From an uncultured Thermus sp. (GTDB taxonomy: Bacteria > Deinococcota > Deinococci > Deinococcales > Thermaceae), in NCBI GenBank assembly GCA_947085095.1, contig CAMTVD010000002.1:1-64000 (forward strand): DNA of 64,000 nucleotides. Direction: 5' to 3'. A program made the position numbers and the translations under genes. The notes under the pieces were generated by a model. The model made no database searches. It was given only the letters and a program-made list of their open reading frames with translations, and had not been told where the DNA came from. Numbering within the stretch: position 1 is the stretch's first letter; every line of letters begins with the position of its first letter. Of this stretch, positions 23,895-46,802 are shown in pieces.

Positions 23895-23976
23895 TACAAT
23901 GCCTGGCATGAAGGGTATGCCCCCGGGCTAGGGCGGGGGAGCCTCCCCGCCCGGGGCGCGTGCCCCGGTTTTTTTT
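23895..23976 (+). promoter_or_regulatory. metG leader: -10 TACAAT, leader ORF MKGMPPG (23908-23931), hairpins and terminator
   Basis: Two Met codons in a 7-aa ORF; CCGGGGC-GCGT-GCCCCGG followed by T8 immediately before the metG SD. Confidence 0.7.
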
Positions 23977-37555: not shown

Positions 37556-40500
37556 CTAAAGGCCTTCTTCCTCCACCAGGCGCAGGAAGGCGGTTACCAC
37601 TTCGGGGTCAAACTGCTTGCTCGCCTGCTCCTGGAGGTAGGCCAAGGCTTTCGCCCGGGGCCAGGCGCGGCGGTAGGGCCGGTCGGAGGTGAGGGCATCG
37701 TAGACGTCCACCACGGCGAAGATTCGGGCAGGAAACGGGATGGCTTCCCCTTTCAGGCCCCGGGGGTAGCCGGAGCCGTCCCAGCGCTCGTGGTGGGCGT
37801 AGGGGATCTCCAGGGCCTTCCTGAGGAAGGGGATGCCGGAGAGCCACTCGTGGGCGTAGACGGGGTGCTTTCTCATCACCGCCCACTCCTCCTCGGTGAG
37901 AGGGCCGGGCTTGAGGAGGATGGCGTCGGGAATCCCCAGCTTGCCCACATCGTGGAGGATGGCCCCCCGCCGGATGTGCTCCAGGTCCTCCTCGGGCACC
38001 CCCAGGGCCAGGGCCAGGCGCAGGGTGAGCTCCGTGACCCGCTCCGTGTGGCCCGCGGTTTCCTGGTCCCGGAGCTCCACGGCCTTGGCCCAGCCCCAGA
38101 GGGTGAGGTCGTACGCAGCTTCCAGTTCCCGCTGGCTCCGTTGCAGGGCCTGAAAGGTGAGGGCGTTGTCCAGGGCGATGGTCCCCTGGCCCACCAGGGC
38201 CTCGAGGAACTCCTCCTCTTCGGGGGCCAGGTCCCAGGGCCTGCGGGTGAAGGCAGCCAGGACCCCCAGAAGCCGCCCCTTGGCGAAGAGGGGGTAAGCC
38301 TCTTCGGCGACCAGACCCTCCTCCAGGGTGAAGCTGGGGTGGGCCCCCGGTTCCTGGGAAAGGTCCGCCACCTGGACCACCCGCCCCTCCAAGGCCGCCC
38401 GGCCCACGTGCCCCACCCCCAAGGGGATGCGCTGGGGTAGGCGGTCCTTGGGGGTCAGGAAGCCCTTGGCCCCCTGCAGGACCAGGGCTTTTTCCTCCTT
38501 GCGGTAGAGGAAGAGGGCCACCGCATCCAGGGGCAGGCGGAGGGCCTGGGCCAGAAAGACCTCCAGGGTGGGCCCCAGGTCCAAGGAGGCGGCGGTGGCC
38601 TGGTCCACGGCCCTGAGGGCTTCCAGATGCTCCAGCCGCTGGGCCAGCTTCTCGCGCAGGCTTGCCCTACGGAAAGCGTTGCCCATGGCCTCGGCCAGGA
38701 TCTGGGCCCGCTCCACCTCCCTGGGCCCAGGAATGTGGGGATGGGGCCAGGAGAGGAGGAGCACCCCGACGGCCTCCTTTCCCGCCAAAAGGGGGAGGGC
38801 CAGGCCGCTATGGCCCTCGGGGATGAGGGGCCGGGCGACCTCCCGGGTGCGGGGGTCGTTCTTGAGGTCGGGGCTCAGGACCACCTCCCCGGCCAGGGCC
38901 CGGGCCACCAGGCTCTTCTCGGCGGGGGTAGGGGCGGGGGGAAGGCCCTCCAGCCATCCCCGGCAGACCTCCGCGGCGAGCCTCGGGGGGTTGCCTTCGT
39001 AGAGGAGCAGGCCACCGGCCTGGGCCTCCAGGATGGCCATCGCCGTGTCCAGGCCCCGTTCCATCATCTCCTTTAGGTCCTGGCTTTGCCTTAGGGCTAT
39101 ACTCAGCCGGGCGAAGCCCTCGAGGGTGAGTTCCCGCTCCTTGGCCTCGGTGATGTCCAGGCCTATCCCCAGAATGGCGGGCTTCCCCGAAAGCTCCACC
39201 CGGGCGGCGGAGAAGTCCAGCCAGCGCACCTCCCCTTCTTTGGTCAGGATGCGGAAGGGGTAGTGGACGGGCACACCTTCCCCCCGGAGGCGGGCCAGGC
39301 CCTGCTTCCGGACCAGCTCCCGGTCCTGGGGGTGGACGAACTCCCAGATGGGCCGGGATCGCACCTCCTCCAGGGAGTACCCCGTGAGGCGCAGGGCTTC
39401 AGGGTTGACGTAGACCAGCCGGGCGGTTTCGGGCTGCTCAGCGCTTTCCGCCTGCCAGATCAGGATGAAGGCTGGGGCGGTTTCCGCCAGGGTGCGGAAG
39501 CGGGCTTCTGACTCGCGGAGGGCGGCTTCCCGCTTTTTTTCCTCGGTGGAATCCCGCTTGATGGCGATAAAGTGGGTGATTTCCCCGTTTTCTTGCACCG
39601 GGGTGATGGTCATGCGCTCCGTGTAAAGGGAGCCGTCCTTGCGGCGGTTCACGATCTCGCCCCGCCACACCTGGCCGGAAAGGATGGTGTCCCAGAGGTG
39701 TTTGAAAAAGGCCTGGTCATGAACCCCGGACTTGAGGAACCGGGGGTTCTTGCCCAAGGCCTCCTCGGGGGCGTACCCCGTCATCTGGGTGAAGGCGGGG
39801 TTTGTCCACAGGATGCGCCCCTCGCGGTCGGTGAGGAGCATGGCCTCGTGAGAGGCTTGTAGGGCCCTTTCCAGAAGCCTCCGGGTGGCCTCAGCCTGGA
39901 GCTTTTCGGTGATGTCTATGGCCACCACCAGGACGGCAGGCCGGTTGGCGTATTCTATGGCGTGGGAGTGGATTTCCACCAGGATTTCCCGGCCGTCCTT
40001 GAGCCGGTGGGTCCAGGGTCCGGAGTGTTCCAGGGGTTTTCGGGGCCCCTTGAGGTTTTCCAGCAACCTCTGCCTCTCCCTCTCTGGGCGTATCTGGAGG
40101 ATGTTCATGGAAAGGAACTCTTCCCGGGTGTACCCGTACTTGGTTGTGGCCGCCTCGTTGACCTCCAGGAAGCGGTAGGTTTCCAGGTTGTAGACCCACA
40201 TGGGCAGGGGATGGGCCTGAAAGAGGAGGCGAAAGCGCTCTTCCTGGGCTGTCTCTAGGGTTACGTCGTAGGTGTAGCCGGTGAGGAGGTGGGTTTCCGG
40301 GTAGTAGATGACCGTGTCCCGGAGCCAGACCCAGGCCCCTTTCGTTCCGTGGCGAAAGCGGTAGGTGTGAACCTGCACTTCACCTGGCTCCGCTACCGCC
40401 CGGCGGCCGGTGGCCTCGAGCCCGGCCCGGTCCTCGGGATGGACTTGGGAAAAGAAAAAGGCGGGGTCGGCGAGGAGGCGTTCCACCGGGTAGCCCAGGA

Positions 40501-41221
40501 GGGCCTCGGCTTGCTTGGAGCTGATGTAGTGGAGGGGGGCGTAGGCGGGGTCTTCTCCCTCCGCCACCTGTAGCTGGAAGACTATACCGGGGAGGGCGTC
40601 AAGGACGCTTTCCAGGCGGGCCTGGTGCCTGACCAGCTCGGTGACGTCCTGGACCTTGAGGACGATGGCACCCACCGCTTCGTCCTGGAGGAGGTTCCTG
40701 CCCCACACCCGCACCGCCCGCACCCCGCCCTCCTTGTCCAGGATGCGCAGGCGGTACTCCAGGGTGGCTCCCGGGTGGCGGAGGAGGTCCTCGAGGGCCG
40801 CTTCGCCCAGGGGTCGGTCTTCAGGATGAATGTAGTCCAGAATGAGCGGCCCTGGCCCCGGGTCTTCCCAGGGAAGGTAGCCCAGCACCCCGGTCACGTT
40901 GGGGGAGACGTAGCGGATGCGCCCCTTTTCGTCCAGGAGGTACACGATCTCCCTTCCGTTTTCCAGAAGGGCTTGGAGACGGTGGGCTGAGGTCTTTTCG
41001 GCTTTGGTTCGGGCCTGCTCCGCCCGGGTCTCCCTACGGGCCAGGAAGTACACCAGAAGCCCGGAAAGAAAGACAAAGGTGAGCCCCTTGCCCGTTTGCC
41101 AGCGGGTGAGCACCTCGGCTTCGGGAAAGAGGAGCAGAAGAAGGCGGTCGCTTCCCAGGATCCAGAACAAAGCAAAAAGACCGTAGGCCCAGGCGATTTT
41201 TCCGGCGGCGCTCAGCCCCAT
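37556..41221 (-). CDS. Membrane multi-PAS/GAF HD-GYP c-di-GMP phosphodiesterase
   Basis: Two TMs, about five PAS, two GAF; ETAGHTERV, LHDVGK and HHERWDGSGYP. Confidence 0.92.
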   Translation of the reverse strand: MGLSAAGKIAWAYGLFALFWILGSDRLLLLLFPEAEVLTRWQTGKGLTFVFLSGLLVYFLARRETRAEQARTKAEKTSAHRLQALLENGREIVYLLDEKGRIRYVSPNVTGVLGYLPWEDPGPGPLILDYIHPEDRPLGEAALEDLLRHPGATLEYRLRILDKEGGVRAVRVWGRNLLQDEAVGAIVLKVQDVTELVRHQARLESVLDALPGIVFQLQVAEGEDPAYAPLHYISSKQAEALLGYPVERLLADPAFFFSQVHPEDRAGLEATGRRAVAEPGEVQVHTYRFRHGTKGAWVWLRDTVIYYPETHLLTGYTYDVTLETAQEERFRLLFQAHPLPMWVYNLETYRFLEVNEAATTKYGYTREEFLSMNILQIRPERERQRLLENLKGPRKPLEHSGPWTHRLKDGREILVEIHSHAIEYANRPAVLVVAIDITEKLQAEATRRLLERALQASHEAMLLTDREGRILWTNPAFTQMTGYAPEEALGKNPRFLKSGVHDQAFFKHLWDTILSGQVWRGEIVNRRKDGSLYTERMTITPVQENGEITHFIAIKRDSTEEKKREAALRESEARFRTLAETAPAFILIWQAESAEQPETARLVYVNPEALRLTGYSLEEVRSRPIWEFVHPQDRELVRKQGLARLRGEGVPVHYPFRILTKEGEVRWLDFSAARVELSGKPAILGIGLDITEAKERELTLEGFARLSIALRQSQDLKEMMERGLDTAMAILEAQAGGLLLYEGNPPRLAAEVCRGWLEGLPPAPTPAEKSLVARALAGEVVLSPDLKNDPRTREVARPLIPEGHSGLALPLLAGKEAVGVLLLSWPHPHIPGPREVERAQILAEAMGNAFRRASLREKLAQRLEHLEALRAVDQATAASLDLGPTLEVFLAQALRLPLDAVALFLYRKEEKALVLQGAKGFLTPKDRLPQRIPLGVGHVGRAALEGRVVQVADLSQEPGAHPSFTLEEGLVAEEAYPLFAKGRLLGVLAAFTRRPWDLAPEEEEFLEALVGQGTIALDNALTFQALQRSQRELEAAYDLTLWGWAKAVELRDQETAGHTERVTELTLRLALALGVPEEDLEHIRRGAILHDVGKLGIPDAILLKPGPLTEEEWAVMRKHPVYAHEWLSGIPFLRKALEIPYAHHERWDGSGYPRGLKGEAIPFPARIFAVVDVYDALTSDRPYRRAWPRAKALAYLQEQASKQFDPEVVTAFLRLVEEEGL

Positions 41222-43794
41222 GGCGTACCCGGTGTATTGTACACCCTGGGGGGCCCTGGGGGGCCCAGCAGGTACCCCTGCCCCAGGGGAAAGCCCAGGC
41301 CCTTCAGGTAGGCCAGGGTGGCCTCGTCCTCTATGCCCTCGGCCACGGCGGAAAGCCCCAGGGCTTGGGCCAAGGCCAGGACGGCGGCCACCAAGCGGGC
41401 GGCGGGGCTTTGGGGGTCTGGGGGGCTTCCCAGGGCCTGCGTGAAGACCTGGCCCAGCTTGAGGCCGTCCACGGGGAAGGCCACCAGGCGCTCCAGGCTG
41501 GAGTAGCCGCTTCCGAAGTCGTCCAGGAAGACCCCGACCCCAAGTTCCCGCAGGAGGCGCAACGCCTGGGTGGCGTCCCGCCCCCTTTCGTCAGGGATGA
41601 GGGCGGTTTCCGTGACCTCCAGGACCAGGGCCTTTGGGGAACATCCCGTTTCCTCCAGGACCTGGGCCACCAGGCTGGGGTAGCCGGGCTGGAGGAGCTC
41701 CTGGGGGCTCACGTTCACGTGCACGGGAAGGCCGTGCTCCCTCCTTTCCCGGCAGGCTTGCCGCAACACCCAGGCCCCCAGCTCGGGCATGAGGTGGTGC
41801 CGCTCCGCCAGGGGGATGAACTCGCCGGGGGGCGCCTTGGGCCAGCGGATCAGGGCCTCGAGGGCTACGGTTTTCCCCGTGGCCAGGTCCACGATGGGCT
41901 GGTAGAAGAGGGTGAGTTCGCCCCCGTCCCTGGCCAGGGTCTCCCGCAGGGCCTCCACCAGGGCCATCTCCCGGCGCAGGACCTCCTGGAGCTGGGGCTC
42001 GTAGAAGGCCAGCTGGTTCTTGCCCTCGGCCTTGGCCCGGTAGAGGGCCAGGTCGGCTCGTTGCAGGAGTTCCCCGGGAGAAAGCCCCCTTTCTCCCAGG
42101 GCGATGCCGATGGAGGTGGTGAGGTGGTAGGTGCGCTTGGCCAGGGGCAGGGGGAGGCGCACCACCTGCAAAAGCCTTTTCCCCACCTGGATGGCCTCCT
42201 CCACCCCCCTGATGCCCGGCAGGAGGACCAGAAACTCGTCCCCGCCCTGCCGGGCCACCAGATCCCGGGGCCTCAGAGCGGTGCGCAAGCGGGCGGCTAC
42301 GGCGCGGATGACCTCGTCCCCGGTGGCGTGGCCCTCCAGGTCGTTCACCAGCTTCAGCCCGTCCAGGTCCAGGTACATGACCGCCAGATGGGGCCCTTGG
42401 CTAAGGGCCTGCGCCAGCTTCTCCAGGAAGTAGAGGCGGTTGGGCAGGCCGGTCAGGGGGTCGTGGTAGGCCAGGTGCTGCAGCCTGCCCTCCAGCTCCA
42501 GCCTCCTGAGGAGGAGGCCCAGCTGGCTGGCGAAGGCCTGGGCCAGCTCCAGGTCCAAGGGGGTGAAGGCGTCCTGCCGCTCCAGGTTGTCCAGGTACAA
42601 GAAGGCCTTGCACTCCCCGGCCAGGTAGACGGGCACCGCCAGGACGGCCTGGATCTCCCGCACCCTTCCCGCCTCCTCCATCACCCTTCTCCGCTTGGGG
42701 TCCAGGCGGCGGTTGAAGCGCAAAAGGTCCCTTTGGGTGAAGACCTGGGCCTCCTGGTGGCCGGTGAGGGAGAGGGGTTCTTCTGGGTGGAGGCGGACCT
42801 GGCGGAGGGCCTCGAGGTCGTACCCGTGGGCGGCCACGAAGTGGTAGTGGCCGTCCTCCTTGAGGATGGTGACGCTTCCCGCCTGGGCGCTGGGAATGGT
42901 GTTCATGGCGGCCTCGAGGATGAGGCCGAAGACGGACTCGGAAAACCCCTCGGCCACCAGGGTTTCGTAGACCCGCAGGAGGTTCCTGCGGAAGGCGCTC
43001 CAGCGGGCCTCCCTCTCTTGGGCGAGAAGCCGCTCCTTCAGGTCCACGCCCAGGGCCAGGACCTCGAGGGCCTCGCCGCCGGGGCCGGGCACCGCCAGCA
43101 GGGTCCACTCGGCGGGGTTTTCCCCGTGGGTGGTGGCCATCTGGGGCCGCCCCGGCTGGGCCAGAACGCCTTCTAAGGGCAAGGGAAGCCCCTGGGGGAA
43201 GGCCTTCTTGAAGGCAGGATTAGCCCAGAGAAGCCTGCCTTCCGGGGCCATGCGGGCCACGTAGAAGGGGGAGAGCTCCAAAAGGCGCTCCGTGAAGCGG
43301 TGGACCTCAAAGAGGTCCAGGGTGCGGGCCAGGGCCTCGGCCACCTCTTTTAAGAAGCCCGCCTCCTCCGGGGTAAAGGCCCTTTCCCGCTCACAGTCGT
43401 CCACCCCCAAAAAGCTCCAAAGCCTCTCCTCCACCCAAATGGGCACCGCCAGGAGGCTTTGGATCTCCTGGGCCTCCAGAAGGGGCCTTTCTTCTTCGGG
43501 GAAGGTGCGCACGGGCCCGCTTATGGCCCCGTCCCGCAAAAAGGCCTCCAGCCAGCGGCCGTAGCCCGCTTCTCCCAGGGGCAGGTTCTGCAGGGCGGGG
43601 TTCTGGATCTGGGGAGCGGCCCCGGGGCCCGCCCACTCCGCCAGCTGGGAGGTGTACCAGCGCCCCTCCCGCTCCTCCAGGCGAAAGAGGTAGGCCCGGT
43701 GGGCCTGGAGGGCCTGGCCCAGGGCCTCTAGGGTTAAAGGAAGGCCGGAGAGACCTTGCCGCAAAAGGGGCAGGAGGACCTGGTGCCGGTCCAT
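41212..43794 (-). CDS. GAF/PAS/GAF-GGDEF-EAL protein
   Basis: DPLTGLPNR, GGDEF, EALIRW, DDFGSGYSS, AEGIE and QGY. Confidence 0.93.
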   Translation of the reverse strand: MDRHQVLLPLLRQGLSGLPLTLEALGQALQAHRAYLFRLEEREGRWYTSQLAEWAGPGAAPQIQNPALQNLPLGEAGYGRWLEAFLRDGAISGPVRTFPEEERPLLEAQEIQSLLAVPIWVEERLWSFLGVDDCERERAFTPEEAGFLKEVAEALARTLDLFEVHRFTERLLELSPFYVARMAPEGRLLWANPAFKKAFPQGLPLPLEGVLAQPGRPQMATTHGENPAEWTLLAVPGPGGEALEVLALGVDLKERLLAQEREARWSAFRRNLLRVYETLVAEGFSESVFGLILEAAMNTIPSAQAGSVTILKEDGHYHFVAAHGYDLEALRQVRLHPEEPLSLTGHQEAQVFTQRDLLRFNRRLDPKRRRVMEEAGRVREIQAVLAVPVYLAGECKAFLYLDNLERQDAFTPLDLELAQAFASQLGLLLRRLELEGRLQHLAYHDPLTGLPNRLYFLEKLAQALSQGPHLAVMYLDLDGLKLVNDLEGHATGDEVIRAVAARLRTALRPRDLVARQGGDEFLVLLPGIRGVEEAIQVGKRLLQVVRLPLPLAKRTYHLTTSIGIALGERGLSPGELLQRADLALYRAKAEGKNQLAFYEPQLQEVLRREMALVEALRETLARDGGELTLFYQPIVDLATGKTVALEALIRWPKAPPGEFIPLAERHHLMPELGAWVLRQACRERREHGLPVHVNVSPQELLQPGYPSLVAQVLEETGCSPKALVLEVTETALIPDERGRDATQALRLLRELGVGVFLDDFGSGYSSLERLVAFPVDGLKLGQVFTQALGSPPDPQSPAARLVAAVLALAQALGLSAVAEGIEDEATLAYLKGLGFPLGQGYLLGPPGPPRVYNTPGTPWG

Positions 43795-43839
43795 AACCGA
43801 ATCCCCTCTAGTATACGCCTCGGGCATCTGGGAAACCCC

Positions 43840-44184
43840 TCAGGGCCCCACCTGGAGGCGCACCCGGCCTCCCGGGGGCACCTCCAGGGTGAGGGTCAGC
43901 CTGCCCCGGCCCGAGAGGACGTGGGTGCCCGCCTGCAGGGGCAGGTTGGCCACAAGGGCCTGGCCCTCCACCTCCACCCTAAGCTCCCACTGGGTGTTGG
44001 CCACCAGCCTGAGGGTGTGGACCCCGGGCCCAAGCTCCAGCGCGGACACCCTAGGGCCTTCCGCCTCCGCCAGGCGGATCCCCACCACGGCGGGGATACG
44101 GATGCCCACGCCCACGCTAGCGGCGCTTTGGGCCAGGGCCACGCCCCCCACCAGGATCAGGAGGGCTAAGACCAGGTGCCGCAT
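43840..44184 (-). CDS. Small secreted beta-rich protein of unknown function, riboswitch-preceded
   Basis: SD GGAGG 5 nt before ATG; signal peptide ending ALA-Q. Confidence 0.75.
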   Translation of the reverse strand: MRHLVLALLILVGGVALAQSAASVGVGIRIPAVVGIRLAEAEGPRVSALELGPGVHTLRLVANTQWELRVEVEGQALVANLPLQAGTHVLSGRGRLTLTLEVPPGGRVRLQVGP

Positions 44185-44237
44185 ACCCACCTCCTCGGGG
44201 GAGGTGGCGCAAGGGTCGGCGGCATAGCCAAGCTATA

Positions 44238-44317
44238 GCGTCCGGCCGGTTGCGCCACTGGCTCCCCGTGTCCCTTGGCGCCCATCTTGGGATTCACGGT
44301 TCCTCGCCTCCGAACGC
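44238..44317 (-). ncRNA. c-di-GMP-II riboswitch aptamer (downstream copy)
   Basis: CGG-A-GGC-GAG-GA-stem with UGGGCGCC loop-GA-GCC-AGU-GGCGC-AA-CCGG-CCG matches the class II architecture (kink-turn, GCGCC/GGCGC pseudoknot). Confidence 0.85.
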
Positions 44318-44385
44318 CCTAAAAACCTTAGGGCCAGGCTGGGCGCCTGGCCGGCAGAGGGGAAAAAAGAACAAACCCTAGCTGC

Positions 44386-44460
44386 CCTCGGCCGGTTGCG
44401 CCACTGGCTCCACCTGCCCCAGGCGCCCAGATTGCAGGGCAGGCTTCCTCGCCTCCGAGG
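44386..44460 (-). ncRNA. c-di-GMP-II riboswitch aptamer (upstream copy)
   Basis: Same conserved core with a different, covarying internal stem (CCUGCCC/GGGCAGG) and P1 (CCUCGG/CCGAGG). Confidence 0.85.
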
Positions 44461-44490
44461 TGCCTTTAGGGGGCTAGCGCCCCTAGCCTT

Positions 44491-44519
44491 AGGATACTCC
44501 CGGAGCCGCTCTTTGGGAA
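44491..44519 (-). promoter_or_regulatory. Putative promoter of the riboswitch transcript
   Basis: Minus strand TTCCCA-17 bp-TATCCT. Confidence 0.45.
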
Positions 44520-44561
44520 GGGGTCTCCCACCCCACCGCGGCGGGGCCCGTCCTTTGGGGC

Positions 44562-46802
44562 CTAGGCCAGCACCGCGACCCCCTGGGCCTTGGCCTGGTA
44601 CATGCGGGTGTCGGCGGCGGAGAGGAGCTCGTCCGCCGTTTTCCCATCCTCGGGGAAGGTGGCGAGGCCGATGTTGACCCCGAGGCAGAGGCCGTCAAAG
44701 CAGAGTTTCCCGATGGCCTTGGCGTAGCGGAAGGCGGCCTTTATAGCCCCTTCCTTCCCGGTGTGGGGAAAGAGGGCGGCGAACTCGTCCCCGCCCCAGC
44801 GGAAAATCTTGTCCCCGTTCCGCCTTTCCCCCAGGAGGGCCTCGGCCACCTTCCTTAAGGCGAGGTCCCCCACGGCGTGGCCCAGTCGGTCGTTCAGCTT
44901 CTTGAAGCCCGTAAGGTCCAAAACGGCCAGGGAAAGAGGGTAGCCGTAGCGCTCGGCCCGCTTCAGCTCCTCCAGGAAGGCCTGCTCAAAGGCCCTCCGG
45001 TTGGGGAGGCCCGTCAAGGGGTCGGTGAGGGCGGCTTCCAAGAGGAGCTTCCGGGTGCGGCTTTCGTGAAGCAGGGTGGCCAAGGGGGCGGCAAAGAAAC
45101 GCGCCGCTTCCAGGGAATCTTCGCCAAAGGCCTGGGGGTCGTGGAGGTTATCCAGGTTCAGGTAGGCCAGGACCTGGCCCTTATGGGGAATGGGGAGGCA
45201 GAGGTTGGCCTGGATCTCCGTGGCCCTTCCCGCGGTGTCCATGACCTCGGGGGGGGCGGTCTCGTGGCTGATCTCGGCGATGGGGCGCTCCGTGGCGCTC
45301 AGGACCCGGGGCTCGCCCCTCAGGGCCTCCTCCCGGCTCCGGCCGTACCAGAGGAGCTGGGCCTCGAGGCCGAAGGTCACCCCCTTGAGGCCCTTCAGGT
45401 CGTACCCCACCGCCGCCCGGAAGCGGTAGACGCCCTCCTCCAGCACGAGGAGGCTTCCCGCCTCCGCCCCGGGCACATACCGAACGGCCACCTCCAGGAC
45501 CTCCGGGTAAAGCGCCTCCAGGGGCTTTTCCAAAAGGTCCAGGAAGAGGCGGTTCACCGCCTGGTGCCGGGCTCTTTCCGTGAGGCGCTCCAGCCCCAGG
45601 CTCAGGGTGCGGCAGGCAGAAAGGAGGAGGTCCACCTCCGCCCTGCGCCAAGGGCGCGCTTCCCGCTGGCCCAGGACCAGCACCCTGCGGCTTCTCGGGG
45701 CGCCTGGGGAGGGGACGGGCAGGGCGGCGAGGGTACGCCAGTCCAGGGCCTGGAGGGCGGGAACCCCCTGGCTTTCCTCGGGGTAGCGGGCGGTGAAGAG
45801 GGGGCTTCCCGTCTCGTAGACCCGCCAGGCGAGGCTCACCCCAAAGGGCAGGCCCTCCTCCAGCACCCGGAGGAGGCTTGCCTCCCGCACGCCGTGGGAG
45901 GCCAGGGTCTGCATCCGCGCGCCCCGGACTTCCCAGAGGGTCCCCGACTCCAGGCCTAAGGAGGTTACGAGAAGGGCGAGGGCTCCCTCTGCCGCCTCCT
46001 CCAGGGTCTCGGCCCTCGCCAATCCTTCGGCAAGCTCGGCCAGGATTCTCCGCTCCTTAAGGTCCGCCAGGCGGGAAAGCTGGAGGCTGACCGCCTGGGC
46101 AAAGCGCCTAAGGCCCGCTACCTCCTCGGGGAGGAAGGGTTTTGGGCGCTCCAGGTTGAGCACCGCCACCGCGTCGCCCTGCTCAAAAAGGGGCAGGGCG
46201 AGCTCGGAAAGCACCTCCTGACCGGGGGGAGCGATGTAGGCGGGTTCTTTGCGCACGTCGGGGATGTAAATGGGCCGCCCCTCCCGGAAGGCCCGGCCCA
46301 CCACCCCGGTTCCCGGAATCCAGTCCAAGCCTATGGGCGGTCGGCTGGCAAGCCGGCGAAACCCACCCCCCTGGGGCACCCAGACCCCCACGTGCCCCCT
46401 TTCCCCCAGGGCAAAGAGGCGCTCCGGGAGGCTTTTTAGCAGGGCCTCCCGGTCCTCCGCCTGGGGGAGGGCCTCGAGGGCCGAGGCCAAAAGCCTCTCT
46501 ACCCGGGCCAGGCTTTGGGCGCGGCGGTGGGCCCTCCGCAGGCTTTTCCCCACCTGGTGGGCGAGGAGGGCCGAGAGGAGGAGGAGGGCCAGGGCTACCC
46601 CGCTGAAGGGGGGAAAGAGGGCCAGGGCGCTTGCGGCGAGGGCGCTGGCCAGAAGCCCCCAGGGGAGGCCGTACACGCTGGCCACCACCGCCACCGCGAT
46701 CATGAACCAGGGGAGGATGTAGGGATCCGTGTAGCCCAAAACCCCAGCCAGGAGCCCCATAAAGAGGGAGCCCAAGGCGATCACGGGGTAGGGCAGGACC
46801 AT
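44562..46802 (-). CDS. Membrane three-GAF diguanylate cyclase
   Basis: N-terminal TMs, three GAF domains, RNGD I-site and an intact GGDEF. Confidence 0.92.
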   Translation of the reverse strand: MVLPYPVIALGSLFMGLLAGVLGYTDPYILPWFMIAVAVVASVYGLPWGLLASALAASALALFPPFSGVALALLLLSALLAHQVGKSLRRAHRRAQSLARVERLLASALEALPQAEDREALLKSLPERLFALGERGHVGVWVPQGGGFRRLASRPPIGLDWIPGTGVVGRAFREGRPIYIPDVRKEPAYIAPPGQEVLSELALPLFEQGDAVAVLNLERPKPFLPEEVAGLRRFAQAVSLQLSRLADLKERRILAELAEGLARAETLEEAAEGALALLVTSLGLESGTLWEVRGARMQTLASHGVREASLLRVLEEGLPFGVSLAWRVYETGSPLFTARYPEESQGVPALQALDWRTLAALPVPSPGAPRSRRVLVLGQREARPWRRAEVDLLLSACRTLSLGLERLTERARHQAVNRLFLDLLEKPLEALYPEVLEVAVRYVPGAEAGSLLVLEEGVYRFRAAVGYDLKGLKGVTFGLEAQLLWYGRSREEALRGEPRVLSATERPIAEISHETAPPEVMDTAGRATEIQANLCLPIPHKGQVLAYLNLDNLHDPQAFGEDSLEAARFFAAPLATLLHESRTRKLLLEAALTDPLTGLPNRRAFEQAFLEELKRAERYGYPLSLAVLDLTGFKKLNDRLGHAVGDLALRKVAEALLGERRNGDKIFRWGGDEFAALFPHTGKEGAIKAAFRYAKAIGKLCFDGLCLGVNIGLATFPEDGKTADELLSAADTRMYQAKAQGVAVLA

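Follow-up and report, generated by a model that had tools for sequence, protein, structure and literature searches.

Tandem class II cyclic di-GMP (c-di-GMP-II) riboswitches are already published: the main text of a survey counts 59 doublets and 9 triplets, places most of them ahead of COG4932 surface-anchor genes in Paraclostridium, and classes such tandems as pseudo-cooperative, with multiple expression platforms (Sherlock et al. 2022, RNA Biol, PMC9481103). The same text describes 'bi-mechanism' tandems of the SAM-II/SAM-V type, in which termination is followed by a translation block. Here we describe a tandem c-di-GMP-II leader that precedes a small open reading frame (ORF) on the minus strand of a 64,000-nucleotide (nt) stretch of DNA from an uncultured Thermus sp. 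(assembly GCA_947085095.1, contig CAMTVD010000002.1, positions 1 to 64,000), called the window below. The genome is labelled G000, and other G numbers denote the genomes of relatives. Covariance-model matches and comparison with relatives confirm the locus as two complete class II c-di-GMP riboswitch aptamers in series, with predicted ligand binding.

The leader resembles the pseudo-cooperative tandems, as the main text of the survey presents them, in placing two complete riboswitches of the same class before one ORF for a secreted or surface protein, and a sharper dose response would be expected from it. It resembles the SAM-II/SAM-V pair described there in that one ligand is predicted to cause transcription termination at the first unit and a block of translation initiation at the second, but differs in that both aptamers are of one structural class and that the terminator of the first unit is interrupted and, in G000, weak. 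Both aptamers have the P1, P2 and P3 stems and the loop-to-3'-tail pseudoknot of RF01786, the c-di-GMP-II family of Rfam, and these are backed by covariation; the locus departs from that family in its thermophilic Deinococci host, its G+C-rich stems and an extra conserved stem, P0, before aptamer 1. The words Thermus, Meiothermus and Deinococc are absent from the main text of PMC9481103, though Thermus doublets may be among its 59. Riboswitches for c-di-GMP, single and contiguous, are enriched in Deinococcota (Microb Genom 2025, PMC12452182); the sections of that article considered here give statistics only, to which the present account adds the anatomy of the platforms and a Thermus locus.

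Two class II c-di-GMP aptamers in series

44382..44465, minus strand: aptamer 1; P1 = 44460-44455 with 44391-44386; pseudoknot = 44426-44422 with 44402-44398
44235..44320, minus strand: aptamer 2; P1 = 44317-44310 with 44245-44238; pseudoknot 3' strand within 44258-44250

A preliminary description of the window, made from the sequence, had recognized two c-di-GMP-II aptamers on the minus strand, each with its own expression platform. The Rfam covariance model RF01786 matches both over its full span (positions 1-84): aptamer 1 at 44465-44382 (minus strand) with 70.9 bits (E 6.4e-14) and aptamer 2 at 44320-44235 (minus strand) with 61.1 bits (E 3.8e-11), where the gathering score is 53.5 bits. 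No other RNA match reaches gathering level anywhere in the 64-kb window. Families of the same clan give four weaker matches that overlap these, and the parent family RF01786 outscores the clan variants. The two aptamers have an identical 23-nt 3' core in common and a G+C content of 73% and 67%, in order, and the gap between them is 61 nt without an ORF.

When the 311-nt leader is folded as a whole, its stability does not exceed that of shuffled sequences (z -0.97); therefore, the element is supported by the covariance model and by relatives rather than by folding energy. Global folding of leaders of 311-338 nt was set aside because spurious long-range pairs dominate and stability does not exceed that of shuffles. 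The comparison uses an alignment of 13 tandem leaders from three genera, seven from Thermus and six from two other genera, to which the counts in this section refer. Standard pairs occupy 94.9% of the 689 cells of the ligand-bound structure, a level reached by none of 500 shuffles, and nine pairs change on both sides, against zero to one in slid controls. For aptamers 1 and 2, respectively, paired cells amount to 94.9% and 96.2% in P1, 97.4% and 100% in P2, and 97.1% and 83.7% in P3, with compensatory changes in P1 and P3 of aptamer 1. Both pseudoknots are paired in 100% of cells, and each has one compensatory pair: C-G to U-A in three sequences for aptamer 1 and G-C to A-U in six sequences for aptamer 2. 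The recognition of two c-di-GMP-II aptamers is thus borne out both by the gathering-level matches, with the parent family ahead of its variants, and by covariation in 13 related leaders. Separate platforms are likewise present, X'/hairpin C after aptamer 1 and an anti-pseudoknot/anti-Shine-Dalgarno element after aptamer 2, both kept in relatives, and every complement and hairpin lies exactly where it had first been placed.

First platform: an alternative-pairing switch

44419..44430, minus strand: segment X, CUGGGCGCCUGG; P3 loop, pseudoknot strand and start of the P3 3' strand of aptamer 1
44353..44385, minus strand: U/C-rich variable linker, of which CCCU (44361-44358) can pair with AGGG in P1 of aptamer 1 (3' strand) or with the downstream AGG(G)
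44339..44350, minus strand: anti-aptamer X', CCAGGCGCCCAG, a perfect 12-nt complement of X; duplex -28.5 kcal/mol
44332..44352, minus strand: hairpin C, 8 bp, GGCCAGGC GCCCA GCCUGGCC, upper stem of a putative terminator
44321..44331, minus strand: CUAAGG followed by U5 (44325-44321), lower-stem 3' strand and U tract of the putative terminator
44316..44334, minus strand: hairpin D, GCCCUAA GGUUU UUAGGGC, alternative to hairpin C in read-through RNA, abutting P1 of aptamer 2

Downstream of aptamer 1, X' can pair either with X or within hairpin C. The energy of the X:X' duplex is matched by 0.7% of shuffles of the aptamer segment in G000 and by at most 1% in all seven Thermus leaders. Across the 13 leaders, the ligand-free helix X:X' is paired in 95.5% of cells, against 28-60% when slid, with one compensatory pair, and four of the seven counted pairs of hairpin C change on both sides. 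The linker sequence is not conserved; a CCCU/CUC element before the hairpin is. On these pairing potentials, X' together with the hairpin at 44352-44332 is a genuine alternative-pairing switch. It counts against a general form of this switch that the X:X' duplex is not significant outside Thermus, being matched by 5.7-49.7% of shuffles in six leaders of genera g3 and g5. The three-segment logic, in which the aptamer loop strand and a second copy of it, the one within hairpin C, compete for the same complement, is well supported by comparison within Thermus and less firmly outside.

Predicted folds agree with two exclusive states. The minimum-energy local fold of the free leader contains X:X' and hairpin D at both 37 and 65 °C. 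With aptamer 1 enforced, hairpin C has a probability of about 1.0 (0.99 at 65 °C) in 7/7 Thermus leaders; with aptamer 1 free, it falls in G000 to 0.06 at 65 °C and 0.03 at 37 °C. In unconstrained nascent RNA at 65 °C, X:X' has a probability of 0.62-0.74 in five of seven Thermus leaders and hairpin C of at most 0.14 in six of seven; the RNA would thus be poised between two folds at growth temperature.

Output of the first platform

Whether hairpin C acts as part of a terminator bears on the claim, made in the preliminary description as a possibility, that the first switch is transcriptional. The consensus terminator scan requires an uninterrupted stem, and for this reason nascent RNA was folded up to the first U. 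The resulting fold ends 0-1 nt before U5 in all seven Thermus leaders. In G001, G008 and G002, CUAAGG pairs with CCUUG upstream of hairpin C, giving a stem of 5+8 bp with a small internal loop and 0 nt to U5, and this modelled structure is an ordinary terminator. The predicted probability of the lower stem is 0.83-0.92 at 37 °C in these three genomes, about 0.5 in G005 and G010, and 0.07-0.29 in G014 and G000, where it is weak because a linker hairpin competes for CCCU. All seven Thermus tandems retain U5; in G006, which has a decayed aptamer 1, the U run is interrupted. Among distant Deinococci, G169 has a hairpin containing the loop complement (X') followed by U6 just before aptamer 2, and G110b has a strong hairpin and U4 before aptamer 2, with a weaker X' complement further upstream.

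Four observations weigh against termination. The consensus scan found no sites in 43800-44900, although the window does contain ordinary terminators, such as the 7-bp G+C stem with T8 at 23951-23968. The lower stem reaches a probability of only 0.17 at 37 °C and 0.29 at 65 °C in G000, leaving U5 six unpaired nucleotides away from the stem. Genus g5 and G094 lack a U run and g3 has only a U3, yet X, X' and hairpin C persist in all of them; thus, termination is not the universal output of this platform. Finally, U5 doubles as the loop of the conserved hairpin D. On balance, the models suggest that switch 1 works in Thermus as a transcriptional attenuator, a strong one in some species and probably a leaky one in G000, and that termination at the first platform of G000 is likely. 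The transcriptional claim is supported insofar as terminator-type stems are predicted in G001, G008, G002, G169 and G110b, and is weakened for the present leader by the weak predicted lower stem and the lack of a scan hit.

In another explanation, only switch 2 controls the gene in G000, and the first platform is a non-terminating folding relay or insulator, a chain of mutually exclusive helices (aptamer 1, X:X', hairpin C, hairpin D and P1 of aptamer 2) that tunes the folding of aptamer 2. Such a relay would make the two switches truly cooperative rather than independent. Hairpins C and D share 3 nt, and D shares 2 nt with P1 of aptamer 2. The stem of D is kept, with a variable loop, across three genera, including genera that lack a U run. 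Enforcing both aptamers in the Thermus leaders gives C a probability of about 1 and D of about 0, against a high probability of D in the free state; the weakness of the lower terminator stem in G000 would also be accounted for. However, the computed coupling energy between the two aptamers is inconsistent in sign among the 13 leaders, ranging from -5.0 to +5.0 kcal/mol at 37 °C and from -1.6 to +5.8 kcal/mol at 65 °C, and in the full-length G000 leader it is about 0.45 in size with opposite signs at the two temperatures. A relay also leaves unexplained why U5 is present in 7/7 Thermus tandems and lost where aptamer 1 has decayed. We regard it as possible but doubtful. Two further pairings, X' with aptamer 2 and the freed strands of hairpins C or D with the second platform, were considered separately and rejected, since by eye neither is conserved across species.

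The linker offers a third explanation for switch 1, namely that the bound state exposes 33-45 nt of U/C-rich, G-poor RNA to Rho or to a ribonuclease, and that, in the free state, this stretch is enclosed by helices formed with aptamer 1. Such a factor-dependent switch would fit the pyrimidine-rich linker in 13/13 leaders despite its lack of sequence conservation, and the retention of X, X' and hairpin C in lineages without a U run. The linker is, however, short for a Rho site, and the argument is one from composition; we consider this explanation unlikely and retain attenuation as the preferred reading of the first platform.

Second platform: proposed masking of the Shine-Dalgarno sequence

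44204..44212, minus strand: anti-pseudoknot UUGCGCCAC, a 9-nt complement of the pseudoknot strand GUGGCGCAA (44258-44250); -16.9 kcal/mol
44187..44207, minus strand: anti-Shine-Dalgarno/Shine-Dalgarno (SD) hairpin, CCACCUCC (44207-44200) CCCGA GGAGGUGG (44194-44187), ending 3 nt before the AUG

The energy of the anti-pseudoknot duplex is matched by 0.6% of shuffles in G000. Among 11 leaders that precede the same gene type (eight from Thermus, one from genus g6 and two from genus g2), nine have a 9-nt perfect complement of the pseudoknot 3' strand, matched by at most 0.8% of shuffles, the exceptions being G014 and G006. In the g2 leaders, G032 and G035, both sides have changed together, GGUGCAACC pairing with GGUUGCACC. 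The anti-pseudoknot of Thermus overlaps the anti-SD, the 5' strand of the SD hairpin, by CCAC; therefore, its pairing with the aptamer strand, available only in the ligand-free state, would weaken the SD hairpin, which is the logic of an OFF switch.

Predicted energies count against this reading, in that, for most leaders, equilibrium folds form the SD hairpin whether the aptamer is present or not. Of the eight Thermus leaders, G000 alone has a mean free-state probability of an unpaired SD above 0.3 at 37 °C. The values for G000, free versus bound, are 0.39 versus 0.06 at 37 °C and 0.09 versus 0.03 at 65 °C. Nevertheless, conserved and covarying complementarity, rather than predicted energies, indicates that the second switch is probably a translational OFF switch. 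The translational role suggested for it in the preliminary description is supported on this basis, the complement being kept in 9/11 leaders and covarying in genus g2.

Many described c-di-GMP-II riboswitches are ON switches, which favours an alternative in which one or both switches here are ON with c-di-GMP; a related alternative is that the two aptamers have different ligands, given that the Rfam clan has variant families and that four lower-scoring clan matches overlap these aptamers. However, in both platforms the alternative pairing draws on aptamer strands that ligand binding would tie up, and it competes with terminator-like and SD-masking hairpins. Different ligands would also sit poorly with the identical 3' core and with the parent family being the best match for both aptamers. 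Reversed polarity or different ligands is unlikely from these pairings, and we give this alternative very little weight.

Proposed mechanism

We propose two c-di-GMP-II riboswitches in series, both OFF with bound c-di-GMP, the first acting by transcriptional attenuation and the second by SD masking; as a whole, we hold this proposal to be evenly balanced between right and wrong. Ligand binding, termination and translational repression are inferred in it from family membership, pairing potentials, conservation and covariation.

At switch 1, in the ligand-free state, X' (44350-44339) would invade the P3 loop and the pseudoknot strand of aptamer 1, and CCCU would pair with the freed P1 3' strand; RNA polymerase would then read through, and hairpin D would form afterwards. 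With ligand bound, aptamer 1 would be locked and X' would fold onto CCUGGCC as hairpin C, helped by the lower stem (CCU..G with C..AGG), so that transcription would stop or be attenuated at about 44325-44321. At switch 2, ligand-free RNA would pair UUGCGCCAC with GUGGCGCAA, leaving the anti-SD occupied and the SD open. In bound RNA, GUGGCGCAA would be held in the aptamer, and CCACCUCC would pair with GGAGGUGG and hide the ribosome binding site. The result is a plausible two-level OFF mechanism on a well-supported RNA element.

Gene context and start of the leader

46802-44562, minus strand: GAF-GGDEF protein gene, 746 amino acids (aa), directly upstream of the riboswitch leader
44491..44496, minus strand: -10-like hexamer TATCCT, inferred own promoter of the leader (by-eye reading)
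44470..44483, minus strand: 5' hairpin P0, GGGGC GCUA GCCCC, preceding aptamer 1; its stem changes on both sides in relatives
43840..44184, minus strand: small ORF, the regulated gene, 114 aa, with its AUG at 44184, 3' of the leader
from 43827 or a later ATG to 41212, minus strand: GAF-GAF-GGDEF-EAL protein gene
41221-37556, minus strand: PAS-GAF-HD-GYP protein gene, overlapping the GGDEF-EAL gene

The leader lies in a c-di-GMP gene island on the minus strand (37556-46802), made up of the GAF-GGDEF gene, the riboswitch leader, the small ORF, and the GAF-GGDEF-EAL and PAS-GAF-HD-GYP genes. The GGDEF, EAL/DDFGSG and HD/HHE/GYP motifs are all intact in the GGDEF-EAL and HD-GYP proteins.

A consensus promoter scan found no leader promoter. 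By eye, a TA(T/C)(A/C)CT hexamer is present 8-9 nt 5' of the first hairpin in eight Thermus leaders, and the predicted transcript start is near 44486. That hairpin, P0, is kept in Thermus and two other genera and lies outside the Rfam model; also by eye, its stem shows two-sided changes in relatives (GGGAC/GUCCC, GGAGC/GCUCC, GGAGG/CCUCC and GGAAGG/CCUUCC), and it may serve to mark the transcript's 5' end and to shield it. Public RNA data yielded only contigs of relatives (14-15% of sampled words), covering 44238-44600 and broken at the aptamer repeats, and showed no starts, ends or joints, the region near 44325 included.

The leader transcript could read through the small ORF into the GGDEF-EAL and HD-GYP genes, in which case high c-di-GMP would shut off its own degradation in an RNA-based positive-feedback latch. 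Such a latch, together with the upstream diguanylate cyclase gene, would make the island a self-contained bistable c-di-GMP module. The two large downstream genes overlap, and the consensus scan (43800-44900) found no terminator between the small ORF and these genes. A conserved TA(T/A/G)ACT box followed by AGAGGGGATTCGG precedes the GGDEF-EAL gene in G000, G005 and G019; this -10-like box suggests that the gene has its own promoter, which counts against the latch. The synteny of leader, small ORF and following genes is limited to the same three genomes. Read-through of this kind seems improbable to us.

Distribution among relatives and natural variants

RF01786 matches occur in 15 of 32 genomes of the genus at E <= 0.001 (9/32 above the cut-off), in 35 of 68 genomes of the family at E <= 1e-5, and, at E <= 1e-6, in 111 of the 151 class genomes sampled, several of which have pairs 130-240 nt apart. 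The last count agrees with the enrichment reported for Deinococcota in the sections of PMC12452182 considered here. The same tandem leader, with aptamers about 150-160 nt apart, is found in seven Thermus genomes (G000, G014, G005, G001, G008, G002 and G010) and also in two other genera, with three genomes each (G036-G038; G048, G042 and G060).

Three Thermus variants depart from this arrangement. G019 has a single chimeric aptamer, in which the 5' part of aptamer 1 is joined to the second platform and the stretch between the aptamers is deleted. In G002, the stretch from aptamer 2 to a third aptamer is deleted, small ORF included, and aptamer 2 is joined to the platform of the third riboswitch, with loss of its P1 partner and a score of 49.4 bits; G002 was dropped as a test of the logic of switch 1 for this loss and score. 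In G006, aptamer 1 has decayed to a 28.5-bit partial match, and its U run is broken to GGUCAUUAGGG. Judging from the sequences of these variants, recombination seems to take place between the repeated aptamer cores.

A third, weaker c-di-GMP-II aptamer is present in G000 (L003, G000:C4:58794-58881, plus strand), with 42.4 bits, under the cut-off; further third-aptamer loci are L021, L028, L014, L015, L029, L016 and L048. It lies ahead of a gene whose secreted product has about 200 aa (start MK/MRKL..ALLA..LALAQ), followed by one for a 246-aa secreted protein, and neither protein has a Pfam family. The third aptamer is directly 3' of the small ORF of the tandem leader in G001, G008, G010 and G006. 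The 3' strand of its P1 (CCCCU or CCCUC) lies 3-15 nt before the SD, with which pairing is possible in some species; from this layout, it would be an ON switch, of polarity opposite to that of the tandem. In another genus of the family, single aptamers with the same anti-pseudoknot design (L037 in G032 and L039 in G035) precede a large lipoprotein-type gene, whose product looks like a subtilisin-like protease from motifs read by eye.

The regulated 114-aa protein

The 114-aa protein has a signal-peptide-like N-terminus and belongs to a small family, with IRIP, VANT.W and GRG as motifs, that is seen in Thermus genomes and in one genome of genus g6. It has no Pfam or NCBIfam family at E <= 0.01, two sub-threshold Pfam matches appear at E <= 1, and its sequence is absent from the protein atlas consulted. 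Its closest database relatives are hypothetical proteins of Thermus aquaticus and Thermus sediminis; among six homologues, all are named hypothetical save one with a UniRef name beginning 'PEGA d'. The AlphaFold2 model (mean predicted local distance difference test score, pLDDT, 83.7) is a beta-jellyroll. Foldseek found no match to it in the PDB at E <= 0.001; in VIA-align, the best match is a de novo designed double-stranded beta-helix (Z 7.1), and Bacillus endospore-appendage (Ena) fibre subunits reach Z 6.0-6.7. Naming a fold family for the protein, Ena included, was rejected because these Z values mean no more than a common jellyroll arrangement.

Significance

The device is already known, tandem c-di-GMP-II riboswitches having been published; what is new is this Thermus example, and knowledge of riboswitch mechanism is unchanged by it. 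A literature search on Thermus, c-di-GMP and riboswitch returned no Thermus riboswitch paper, by title or abstract opening, among the matches listed. A 2024 paper on PilF of Thermus thermophilus states that nothing is known of c-di-GMP effectors in that species and, in the sections considered here, mentions riboswitches only in general terms (PMC11731258). The natural variants G019, G002 and G006 are usable as ready-made controls. The leader is a compact, heat-adapted case of two switches of the same class that would act at two levels, and the locus is a predicted RNA receptor for c-di-GMP in Thermus-type bacteria.

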